From Candidatus Micrarchaeota archaeon (lineage in GTDB: Archaea; Micrarchaeota; Micrarchaeia; Anstonellales; JAHKLY01): DNA of 64,000 nt. The translations under genes and the position numbers were made by a program. This document shows positions 10,073-12,891 of the stretch, piece after piece. The notes below the pieces were generated by a model. The model saw only the letters and a list, made by a program, of their open reading frames with translations. It searched no databases and was not told the DNA's origin. The stretch lies in assembly GCA_020854825.1 (NCBI GenBank), contig JAHKLY010000001.1, forward strand, positions 1 through 64,000, read 5' to 3'. Every line of letters starts with the position of its first letter. Within the stretch, counting starts at the first letter, position 1.

Positions 10073-11329
10073 TTGTATATGAAAATTTTAGCTGACTTAC
10101 ACATACATTCAAAATATGCTATGGCTACTTCTCCAAGAAGTGATCTAGATAGTTTTTCAGAATGGGCAAAATTCAAAGGAATTGATTTATTAGGAACTGG
10201 TGATTTCTGTCATCCATTATGGTTTAAAGAATTAAAAGAAAAACTTAAAGAAACAGAAAAAGGAATATATGAATATAAAGGAATTAATTATATCTTACAA
10301 AACGAGGTTTCTACTATTTATTATAAAAATGGAAAATGCAAAAAAATCCACCATATTTTGTATGCGCCTTCATTAGAAATTGTTGAACAAATAAGCGATG
10401 TACTCGGAAAAAAATGTGATTTAAAATCAGACGGCAGACCCATCTTTAAAATCAGTTCTCCTGAATTAGTTGAAACAATAATGAATATCTCAAGAGATAA
10501 TGAAGTTGTAAGTTCGCATTGCTTTACGCCGTGGTTCGGTGTTTTTGGATCAAAAGGAGGTTTTGATTCTTTAGAAGATTGTTATGAAGATCAAACAAAA
10601 CACATACATGCATTAGAAACAGGATTATCTGCGGATCCACCAATGTTTTGGAGAATTTCTAATTTAGATAAATATAATTTAATATCAAACTCAGATTGTC
10701 ATTCACCTGAAAAACTAGGAAGAGAATTAAATGAATTAGGATTAGAAGAATTATCATATAAAAATATTTTACAAACTTTAAGAACAAAAAATGAAAAGAA
10801 TAAAATAACAAAAACATATGAATTTTATCCAGAAGAAGGAAAATATCATGTTGATGGACATAGACATTGTAAAATATCGTTAAATCCTCAAGAGAGTAAA
10901 AAATATAATAACATCTGTCCTGTTTGTAGAAAACAGTTAACATTAGGAGTATTACATAGGGTTGATGATTTAGCAGACAGAGAAATTGGAAAAAAGCCAT
11001 TAACTGCTATTCTGTTTCAACATTTAGTTCCTTTAAGACAAATAATTGCAAAAGTACTTAATAAAGGAGAAAATACAAAAACAGTTGAAGAAGAATATTT
11101 TAAATATATAACATATTTTGGAAATGAATTTAAAGTTTTAACTGCTTCTAAAGAAAGTTTAAATTTAGCAGGTAAATCAGAGATATCTGAAGCTATTTGG
11201 AGAGCGCAAAATGAAAACTTAACAGTAATACCAGGATATGATGGAGTTTTTGGAAAAATAGAATTTAAAGAAGATTTAAAAAAAGAAAAACTAAAGCGCC
11301 CAAAACAAGATTCTTTATTAAATTATTAA
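10073..11329 (+). CDS. endoQ: Endonuclease Q (PHP domain + Zn finger)
   Basis: ADLHIHSKY, GTGD, ETGLSAD, SNSDCHS, GKYHVDGHR.C, CPVC, PGYDGVFG; C-terminal PIP-box-like QDSLLNY; likely start ATG 10079. Confidence 0.9.
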   Translation: MYMKILADLHIHSKYAMATSPRSDLDSFSEWAKFKGIDLLGTGDFCHPLWFKELKEKLKETEKGIYEYKGINYILQNEVSTIYYKNGKCKKIHHILYAPSLEIVEQISDVLGKKCDLKSDGRPIFKISSPELVETIMNISRDNEVVSSHCFTPWFGVFGSKGGFDSLEDCYEDQTKHIHALETGLSADPPMFWRISNLDKYNLISNSDCHSPEKLGRELNELGLEELSYKNILQTLRTKNEKNKITKTYEFYPEEGKYHVDGHRHCKISLNPQESKKYNNICPVCRKQLTLGVLHRVDDLADREIGKKPLTAILFQHLVPLRQIIAKVLNKGENTKTVEEEYFKYITYFGNEFKVLTASKESLNLAGKSEISEAIWRAQNENLTVIPGYDGVFGKIEFKEDLKKEKLKRPKQDSLLNY

Positions 11330-11424
11330 ATATTTGTTTAACAATAATTTTATTGATTAATTTATATCATTTAATTTTATATTAGATATTTCAATTATTT
11401 AATAATATCTATCAATTTTATAGA

Positions 11425-11655
11425 TATTAGTCGCATTTGCAACCAATTTTGAATGAAATTGGTCGGTTTTGCGACTAATTTGAATATAAAAATTTATGAA
11501 TGAAAAACCTTGTTAAGAAATTGGTCGTATTTTCAACCAATTCAGCTTGAAATTGGTCGTTTTTCCGACTAATTTTATATTTTACGTATAAAAATACAAA
11601 AATATTCAGTATACTAAACAAAAAACAGTAAATTTGTTCGCTATACTGGACAAAA
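11425..11655. repeat. Array of 24-bp palindromic sites (consensus AATTGGTCG-N6-CGACYAATT) in pairs with 32-bp period
   Basis: Copies at 11425-11448, 11457-11480, 11519-11542 and 11551-11574; degenerate pair at 11600-11623 and 11632-11655. Confidence 0.85.
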
Positions 11656-11708
11656 TAATTTAAATAATTGAGATTAACTTTTTATACTTCTCTTTTTTAA
11701 ATAAAAAC

Positions 11709-12440
11709 ATGGTTAAGGATAAAGCGCAAACTAAACTAGATTTAGAGAAAATGGTTTCATATCCCTCTTGGAGAGAAATGTTGATGGATTTAGTGGTTGA
11801 AGAAGAGTTTGACCCTTGGGATATTGATATAAGTGCTATCACTTCAAAATATATACAACAAATTAAAGAAATGAAAACTTTAGAATTACAAATTCCAGCT
11901 AATTTAATTCTCGCTGCCTCTATCTTATTAAAATTAAAAAGTAAAGATTTAGTTTTTGAAGAAGAAGTCCAAATAGAAGTAGATGAAACATTTGTAGATG
12001 AAGAAGAAGGCCCAATAGAAATACCTATGTTAGAATTAAGAACAAGAATTCCTCCAAAACGAAGAGTATCTTTAGAAGAATTAGTAGAAGCGGTTGAAGA
12101 AGTGTTTAAAGAAGAACAAAATAGAATTGAAAAACAAAGTAAAATCGAAATCCCAAAAAAAATGATTTTACAATTACCTGAAATAACAATAGATGAACAG
12201 ATAAATGAAGTAAAACAAAGAATGTTAAATTTAAAAGATGAAAAAGGAATGGTATTATTTTCTAATTTAATAAAAAACAAAACACCAAATGAAAAAGTTT
12301 TTGCGTTATTACCTTTATTATATTTACAACAAAAACATGAGGTTTTTTTAATACAAGAAAAACTTTTTGGGGAGATTATAATACACGTTAACTTTAATAA
12401 ATTAAAGGAACTAGATGATAAACATGGAAAAATCGCTTGA
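11709..12440 (+). CDS. scpA: Segregation and condensation protein A (kleisin)
   Basis: FDPWDIDISAITSKY, ANLILAASILLKLKS, RRVSLEELV, LLPLLYL...IQEKLFGEI. Confidence 0.92.
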   Translation: MVKDKAQTKLDLEKMVSYPSWREMLMDLVVEEEFDPWDIDISAITSKYIQQIKEMKTLELQIPANLILAASILLKLKSKDLVFEEEVQIEVDETFVDEEEGPIEIPMLELRTRIPPKRRVSLEELVEAVEEVFKEEQNRIEKQSKIEIPKKMILQLPEITIDEQINEVKQRMLNLKDEKGMVLFSNLIKNKTPNEKVFALLPLLYLQQKHEVFLIQEKLFGEIIIHVNFNKLKELDDKHGKIA

Positions 12441-12891
12441 AAAACAGAAAATAATTGAAGCTGCATTATTTATGTCAACTAAACCATTATCAGTTGCTGA
12501 TTTAGCTAAATTATTAAATATAGCTGCAATTGGTTATGTAACTAAGGAGATAAAAACCATTCAAAAACAATACGAGGATAGAAATGGACCTATACAAATA
12601 TTTGAAGAAAATGGAAAATATATTATGACTTTAAAAGCCGAATATGCAAGAGAAGTAAAAGATTTTGCAAAAGAAGCTGAAATAAATCCTCATGCATTGA
12701 AAACATTGGGATATATTGCAAAAAGAGATGGAATTTTAAAGTCTGATTTATGCAAAAAACTAGGAAGTACAATTTATCAAGATGTTATAGAATTAAATGA
12801 AAAAGGATTTATTACACAAAAAAAATCAGGGAGAACAAAAAAAATATTTTTAACTCAAAAATTCAAAGATTATTTTAAAGGAGAGTTATGA
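12415..12891 (+). CDS. scpB: SMC-Scp complex subunit ScpB
   Basis: IIEAALFMSTKPLS, ALKTLGYIA, LTQKFKDYF; follows scpA. Confidence 0.92.
   Translation: MINMEKSLEKQKIIEAALFMSTKPLSVADLAKLLNIAAIGYVTKEIKTIQKQYEDRNGPIQIFEENGKYIMTLKAEYAREVKDFAKEAEINPHALKTLGYIAKRDGILKSDLCKKLGSTIYQDVIELNEKGFITQKKSGRTKKIFLTQKFKDYFKGEL

Follow-up and report, generated by a model that had tools for sequence, protein, structure and literature searches.

Paired or multiple palindromic operators that are bound cooperatively are known from archaea, for example at the sites of NrpR in Methanococcus maripaludis and of Ss-LrpB in Sulfolobus. At archaeal origins of replication, an orc1/cdc6 gene beside oriC is usual, although not universal. 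A further point of reference is the PDC-S01 gene family, whose members carry the Pfam domains AAA_14 and DUF4143. In the part of PMC12988326 considered here, PDC-S01 is given as the fourth most common defence candidate across prokaryotes and as enriched in archaea; most such candidates, PDC-S01 among them, still await experimental validation. The part of PMC3424549 considered here places DUF4143 among the PD-(D/E)XK families and gives its function as unknown. In the open-access literature searched on DUF4143, COG1373, AAA_14 in archaea and PDC-S01, we found no paper on dyad sites and none testing DNA binding by a PDC-S01 ATPase.

The locus described here lies in the window, that is, the whole 64,000-nucleotide stretch that was analysed, which is the first 64 kb of contig C3 in a genome of 828,311 bp, 28% G+C and seven contigs (G000). 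An intergenic gap flanked on the 5' side by an endonuclease-Q-like gene (endoQ) and on the 3' side by scpA-scpB-hisS carries four related dyads (P1-P4) and two degenerate ones (T1 and T2), listed in Table 1. Our findings suggest that this array probably consists of promoter-operator modules of the PDC-S01 family that have no gene (orphan modules) and that remain from the turnover of cassettes downstream of endoQ. The endonuclease-Q-like designation of the upstream gene is based on a PHP-type N-terminus and a Cys-rich motif in its translation, and no Pfam family matched the protein. Its relatives are widespread in archaea and bacteria of many phyla at 41-55% identity, and were of no use as a guide to synteny. 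The scpA and scpB genes are neighbours of the array, and we found no support for their membership in it; the SMC gene sits on a different contig.

An earlier note on this DNA had described a gap of about 380 bp in a tightly packed genome. The size stands, but the length is not unusual, as 33 of the 73 gaps of at least 250 bp are longer in a crude ORF-based gene call. The same note's very AT-rich tract is confirmed by its base composition, since the gaps of at least 250 bp have a median G+C content of 27%. This tract possibly consists of decayed copies of the endoQ gene end, for which the alignment is suggestive at best, the DNA being so AT-rich. Two small ORFs in the gap, of 48 aa on the minus strand and 20 aa on the plus strand, found no support as genes. 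The sequencing runs listed for this region are six DNA runs, all of sludge metagenomes, with no RNA run among them. Contigs of the sludge-metagenome runs X1, X5 and X6 span the array with zero differences, and those of X3 reach 11701; in the contigs of these four runs, which may come from one campaign and some of which may be the source of the G000 DNA, the array shows neither variants nor insertions and no difference in copy number. At the start of the window, positions 1-1701 on the minus strand hold a gene that runs off the contig end and encodes a secreted papain-like cysteine protease with a CGSCWAF motif. This stretch has 38% G+C, against about 27% in the rest of the window, and was possibly acquired.

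Table 1. Features in and around the gap between endoQ and scpA (positions in the window).
Feature	Position	Strand	Remarks
Endonuclease-Q-like gene (endoQ), 418 aa	10073-11329	+	ORF and translation
Intergenic gap, 379 bp	11330-11708		Between plus-strand ORF ending at 11329 and scpA start at 11709
AT-rich tract	11330-11424		9.5% G+C; two loosely similar 36-nt direct repeats (family D2, 72% identity)
P1	11425-11448		1 mismatch to AATTRGTYG-N6-CRACYAATT; centre 11436.5
P2	11457-11480		0 mismatches; centre 11468.5
P3	11519-11542		0 mismatches; centre 11530.5
P4	11551-11574		0 mismatches; centre 11562.5
T1, degenerate, TATA-centred	11600-11623		Centre 11611.5
T2, degenerate, TATA-centred	11632-11655		Centre 11643.5
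Operator-type pair 1 (P1+P2)	11425-11480		56-nt inverted repeat
TATA-like box ATATAAAAAT after P2	11484-11493	+	Sequence reading
6-codon stub ORF after ATATAAAAAT	ATG 11496 to TAA 11516	+	No detectable similarity to ATPase coding sequence
Operator-type pair 2 (P3+P4)	11519-11574		Copy of pair 1, 83% identity, 94 bp downstream
TATA-like stretches TTATATTTT, then GTATAAAAAT, right after P4	11575-11595	+	Sequence reading
Degenerate pair (T1+T2)	11600-11655		Half-sites like Q-type dyads at C3:214637-214770
TTTAAATA right after T2, as in Q module	11659-11666	+	Sequence comparison
TTTTTATA	11679-11686	+	About 26 nt before scpA ATG
scpA	11709-12440	+	Pfam SMC_ScpA, E 4e-17
scpB, overlaps scpA	12415-12891	+	Pfam SMC_ScpB, E 3.5e-24

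The four 24-bp palindromes were recovered exactly as the earlier note had quoted them, and its three pairs (P1-P2, P3-P4 and T1-T2) are each 32 bp apart from centre to centre, as claimed. The centres of P2 and P3 are separated by 62 bp and those of P1 and P3 by 94 bp, and all four P centres are in helical phase. In each of P2, P3 and P4, 8 of the 9 arm positions are complementary, and the unit formed by P1-P2, 60 nt in length, recurs as P3-P4. Because a spacing of 31-32 bp amounts to about three helical turns, the dyads of a pair would lie on one face of the DNA. In 100 dinucleotide-preserving shuffled controls, the mean was 0.06 matches and none (0/100) reached four. The note had also called for a genome-wide motif scan against the possibility of a dispersed MITE. 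At up to two mismatches, the whole genome holds just P1-P4, and because the motif is confined to this one gap, the array is neither a MITE nor a REPIN. As judged by eye, a TATA-like box lies directly downstream of all three modules (ATATAAAAAT, TTATATTTT and TTTAAATA), and the order pair-TATA-ATG at 11484-11516 matches that found at ATPase paralogs elsewhere in the genome. The stretches TTATATTTT and GTATAAAAAT may act as promoter elements, and TTTTTATA, judging by its letters, is likely the TATA box of a leaderless scpA transcript.

A repeat scan of all long gaps in G000 returned a second array, at C3:214637-214770 (L274 7638-7771), with four identical TTGTTC-type 8-N6-8 dyads spaced by 32, 50 and 32 bp. 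This array, designated Q, directly adjoins the TATA box and start codon of the gene for a 416-aa protein, in which Pfam recognises AAA_14 and DUF4143 domains, and T1 and T2 resemble the dyads of the Q array. The Q-type array of the sister species G001 has the same arrangement (C42:4994-5127), and the Q-type paralog is intact in both species. Among the seven AAA_14-type paralogs of G000, six have paralog-specific, mutually different dyads directly before a TATA-like box and ATG. Dyad pairs 31-32 bp apart and followed by TATA occur upstream of five of the seven AAA_14+DUF4143 genes (PADLOC PDC-S01), with a spacing of 32 bp at C2:146653, C3:190724, C3:213371-214625 and C2:144193-145404 and of 31 bp at C5:55545. 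One paralog has a single 32-nt dyad on both flanks, and the seventh, a distant member, has no upstream dyads. The build 7/8-N6-7/8 is common to the Q and R paralog arrays, and P1-P4 fall in the same class, with two arms of 7-9 nt around a 6-nt spacer. A P-type operator was found beside none of the seven paralogs in G000, nor beside any in G001, so the cognate P binder may be missing; the operator closest to the P type, at C2:144193, differs at the bases adjoining the spacer.

The spacing also emerges when genes are ignored. Among 1074 7-N6-7 dyads scanned at offsets of 20-60, similar pairs appeared only at 32 (five) and 50 (one), and direct 22-mer repeats were found at offset 32 in seven loci, compared with 0-4 at other offsets except 66. 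The exception is an array at the end of a contig (G000:C6:1-366) whose repeats recur every 66 bp and which reads as CRISPR-like. Another orphan 32-bp pair, at C3:145787-145848, lies in the divergent promoter region of phosphotransacetylase-like and TIM-barrel genes (names from translations), and no counterpart of it was found in G001. Several other elements were recorded in the same genome. Just upstream of the Q array, C3:214803-215152 (L274 7803-8152, minus strand) contains a frame broken by stops, which by eye looks like a frameshifted gene for a small FMN-binding (pyridoxamine-phosphate-oxidase-like) protein. Further repeat arrays lie at C1:10901-11120 and C1:36650-37070; one of the two is built from five copies, spaced by about 50 bp, of a unit that contains CCTCGGCATTA, and in the other, AAAAATGCGGC hairpin units recur around a G+C-rich stretch, possibly a structured RNA.

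In the order, 18 of 176 genomes contain a 52-nt pattern made up of two dyads 32 bp apart, compared with no matches for the reversed control pattern, and an ATPase homolog adjoins the pair in 14 of the 18 loci. The loci with no adjoining ATPase are L285, L287, L290 and L296; in L290 and L296, the pair is less than 200 bp from the start of the available stretch. In two genomes (G017 and G036), pairs bracket a gene of 404-405 aa. In a sample of 401 genomes from the phylum, P-type pairs occurred in three and control matches in none. One of these genomes, G007, has P-type pairs at C25 positions 43-94 and 1375-1426, which flank a 405-aa ATPase gene on both sides and have the half-site order of P1-P2. 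Another, G154, has an orphan P-type pair between UbiD-like and UbiX-like genes (labels from translations). Searches with tblastn revealed no scpA, scpB or endoQ at the G007 and G154 loci (L312 and L315).

The association is equally visible from the side of the genes. For 31 ATPase genes in 30 loci, the best upstream repeat offset was 32 in nine, 33 in two and 50-51 in two at a threshold of at least 16 of 20 matches, which none of the 31 in-gene controls passed; when the threshold was dropped, the best offset was 31-33 in 21 of the 31. In 11 of 28 genes (about 40%), the upstream element recurs at the stop codon with 25-30 of 30 positions identical, compared with at most 20 of 30 in a control comparison of upstream and in-gene sequence. 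The dyad pairs of the window thus belong to an ATPase-associated class of pairs, and this class is tied to the gene family. Its pairing rule comprises a spacing of 31-32 bp, paralog-specific half-sites and double pairs spaced 32/50/32. Matches to the P pattern in viral contigs (71 loci) and metagenome contigs (at least 119 loci) were essentially single chance matches. Two viral contigs of a phage with 31% G+C (L059 and L085, around 1990-2090) contain iteron-like tandem GGTCGG-N-CCGACTAGTA repeats within or beside an HTH-protein gene; these were judged unrelated to the array, because the pattern itself had selected them.

All eight ATPases tested matched PADLOC PDC-S01, with E-values from 2.4e-30 to 7.2e-106. 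In a confident AlphaFold model (pLDDT 88.9), the protein resembles ORC/Cdc6 in its AAA+ and winged-helix architecture. Foldseek matches of the model include 2qby, 2v1u, 2fna and 2qen, and among the proteins that it resembles are ORC subunits, DNA-bound archaeal Orc1/Cdc6, STAND NTPases and two AAA+ ATPases from archaea whose function is not known. Members of the family are AAA_14 ATPases with a predicted winged helix and a putative DUF4143 nuclease domain of PD-(D/E)XK type. A PDB sequence search with a paralog returned no homolog, and NCBIfam gave weak sub-threshold matches only. The winged-helix region varies by clade, and protein clades track dyad types, a match that could arise from shared ancestry alone. 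Of 61 genomes with a completeness of at least 90%, 32 contain the family, in as many as 33 copies per genome. Large expansions were seen in order relatives with genomes of about 1 Mb, with 33 matches in G017, 19 each in G159 and G030, and 17 in G032; the other 29 of the 61 genomes have none.

The sister species G001 belongs to the same genus, and its endoQ ortholog ends at the same residue as that of G000. After endoQ it has one P-type dyad, compared with four in G000, and the endoQ stop codon falls inside this dyad. About 9 kb with two large genes separate it from scpA. The two ORFs, of 1970 and 957 aa (G001:C15; L015 2804-11586, minus strand), are absent from G000; the 1970-aa protein has a signal-peptide-like start and the 957-aa protein is Cys-rich at its end, and the stretch holds surface-protein genes. 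The T1-T2 pair is kept in G001 with its 32-bp spacing unchanged and an identity of about 83% (45 of 54 positions, counted by hand), a level of conservation between the species that is close to that of coding DNA. On this ground, T1-T2 may be functional and not a relic. In G001 the pair precedes the 1970-aa gene and not scpA, whose own 37-bp upstream gap has no dyads. In a search of 176 genomes from the order, the P motif in its exact degenerate form was found in G000 only (0 of the 175 others). Conservation upstream of scpA in relatives, which the earlier note had proposed as a check, is not borne out by these results, and the outcome that the note had named as refuting, absence of the motif from the corresponding region of close relatives, is largely what G001 shows. 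The link that the note drew to condensin through scpA-scpB, to a centromere or to an origin is likewise not supported, as the layout is the signature flank of PDC-S01-type genes both in this genome and across the order.

Several other explanations deserve to be weighed. The array could be a live operator in trans, in which one or more of the winged-helix ATPase paralogs, or another regulator, still occupy the P and T dyads and regulate how scpA-scpB-hisS is transcribed; condensin expression would then be coupled to the state of these regulator proteins. The helical phase of the four P centres, at 32, 62 and 94 bp, is in keeping with such a role, as are the well-kept dyads P2-P4, the Q-like T1-T2 pair shared by two species that both retain an intact Q-type paralog with its array, and the distance of just 53 nt from T2 to the scpA ATG. 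Yet in G001 the T1-T2 pair stands before a different gene, scpA has no dyads in its gap and only one of the four P dyads is retained, and neither genome contains the cognate P-type paralog. The well-kept and phased P2-P4, the conserved T1-T2 and the failure to detect a coding remnant leave this reading some weight, although we regard it as fairly unlikely. The preservation of P2-P4 and the phase of all four centres could mean that the sites are still used. A broader version, in which PDC-S01 ATPase-nucleases are sequence-specific readers of paralog-specific dyads phased at 32 bp, and orphan arrays are working targets by which such candidate immune proteins control host genes (here scpAB) or mark 'self' DNA, is quite unlikely in our estimate. 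Alternatively, the dyads could belong to a hairpin element of RNA or DNA, such as small RNA genes, terminators or REPIN-like repeats, and not be protein-binding sites at all. The earlier note had proposed that each pair can extrude as a cruciform of about 56 bp, which holds for P1-P2, a 56-nt hairpin of -14.4 kcal/mol (z -5.9), but not for P3-P4, which prefers two small hairpins over one; T1-T2 folds with z -4.0. Beyond the folding of P1-P2 and T1-T2, the 3' copies that overlap stop codons in other family members also speak for a hairpin. Against it, Rfam gave no match at gathering score (the best in the gap had 19 bits, E 1.1), the arm mismatches are, by reading, not consistently wobble-compatible on one strand, the dyads of paralogs sit upstream of TATA boxes, and each dyad type occurs at one or two loci and is not dispersed. 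Together with the failure of P3-P4 to fold as one hairpin, these points make a hairpin element highly unlikely.

A chromosomal replication origin would explain the dyads as ORB-like initiator sites beside an AT-rich unwinding tract. Such a tract, 95 bp long, does adjoin the repeated dyads, the gene family linked to the dyads has an Orc1/Cdc6-like AAA+ plus winged-helix fold, and no other origin was located in G000. However, the dyad-pair layout recurs at six or more other loci, all of them either beside a PDC-S01 paralog or within an unremarkable promoter region, and the single Orc1/Cdc6 gene (C3:95544-96764, with a Cdc6_C match at C3:96393-96701) is 84 kb away. The AT-rich tract lies to one side of all dyads and not between inverted sites, and the array is down to one dyad in G001. 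The cumulative GC-skew check that the earlier note had asked for shows an uninformative skew that follows gene orientation, with no turn at 11.4 kb. A search for the ORB core motif quoted in that note with up to three mismatches gave no cluster in the genome and no site in the gap, bearing in mind that lineage-specific ORBs may differ. Because they reach 33 copies per genome, PDC-S01 proteins do not fit chromosome initiators, and an origin at this position is very improbable. We consider it extremely improbable that a segregation protein reads the array as a centromere-like site or as a loading site for SMC-ScpAB. Its position directly upstream of scpA-scpB in G000 and the general resemblance of clustered phased dyads to partition sites would fit this idea, but the G001 dyad is split from scpA by 9 kb and two large genes, P-type pairs elsewhere (L312 and L315) occur with no scpA, scpB or endoQ by tblastn, the motif was found in none of the 175 other genomes of the order, and the layout belongs to an unrelated gene family.

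The reading that we favour, orphan promoter-operator modules of the PDC-S01 family, would divide the array into three parts. The first module would comprise P1-P2 with its TATA-like box and the 6-codon stub, the second P3-P4 with its TATA-like stretches, and the third the degenerate Q-type pair T1-T2 with TTTAAATA. An AAA_14/DUF4143 gene is absent immediately downstream, and a tblastn search for an ATPase coding remnant in a 421-nt target that includes the gap gave matches at E of 0.03 or higher only. We speak of orphan modules, and not of a complete cassette, because scpA comes next and no ATPase remnant was detected. Family genes of the lineage have their own paralog-specific dyads, in pairs 31-32 bp apart that abut the TATA box. 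In the proposed mechanism, a winged-helix dimer of the ATPase would read each dyad, and two dimers on the same face could bind cooperatively beside BRE/TATA and autoregulate the ATPase gene, probably by repression. The earlier note's view of same-face sites for a dimeric protein, or a multi-operator, is thus supported in kind, given the phased dyads and the 32-bp pairs, with the binder itself a matter of inference. The orphans most likely record cassette insertion, duplication and loss at the 3' end of endoQ, and the direct repeats around many family genes may provide a route to gene loss. Turnover, and not a conserved site, is suggested by the single P dyad kept in G001 and by the C3:145787 pair that has no counterpart there. 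Counted against this reading are the missing adjoining ATPase gene, the lack of a remnant and the lack of a P-type paralog operator in G000.

These findings indicate that what looked like a promising archaeal centromere or origin carries the control sites typical of a gene family that is mobile and expanding, and they call for caution when phased palindromes of this sort are seen in other small genomes. With their phasing of 31-32 bp, the paralog-specific dyads offer a concrete candidate DNA ligand for each PDC-S01 protein. They also suggest how PDC-S01 genes are kept silent, and the flanking repeats could drive gain and loss of these genes.

Each of the known systems resembles the locus in part. 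By analogy with solo LTRs and other solitary flank repeats, near-identical direct copies of an element often stand on both sides of a family gene, and recombination between these copies would remove the gene, with the element left behind. Unlike the situation here, a single recombination would leave one pair, and not two pairs of 83% identity and another of a different type; the contigs of the four sludge-metagenome runs show no deletion intermediate. The likeness to Orc1/Cdc6 and its ORB sites lies in the predicted AAA+, lid and winged-helix domains of the family (2qby and 2v1u, Foldseek E 3.9e-08 and 7e-07) and in DNA sites that are repeated dyads. The differences are low TM-scores of 0.29-0.32, an extra C-terminal nuclease-type domain, the high copy number of the family and the placement of the array away from orc1/cdc6. 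NrpR and Ss-LrpB share with this locus dyads repeated at integral helical turns next to BRE/TATA, which imply cooperative dimer binding on one face. They differ in that the binder proposed here is a winged-helix AAA+ ATPase-nuclease and not a small dedicated regulator, that the sites vary by paralog and that many genes have a second, 3' copy. The distinctive elements of the present case are the gene-less modules, three in a row, and a pairing rule that is quantified across an order.
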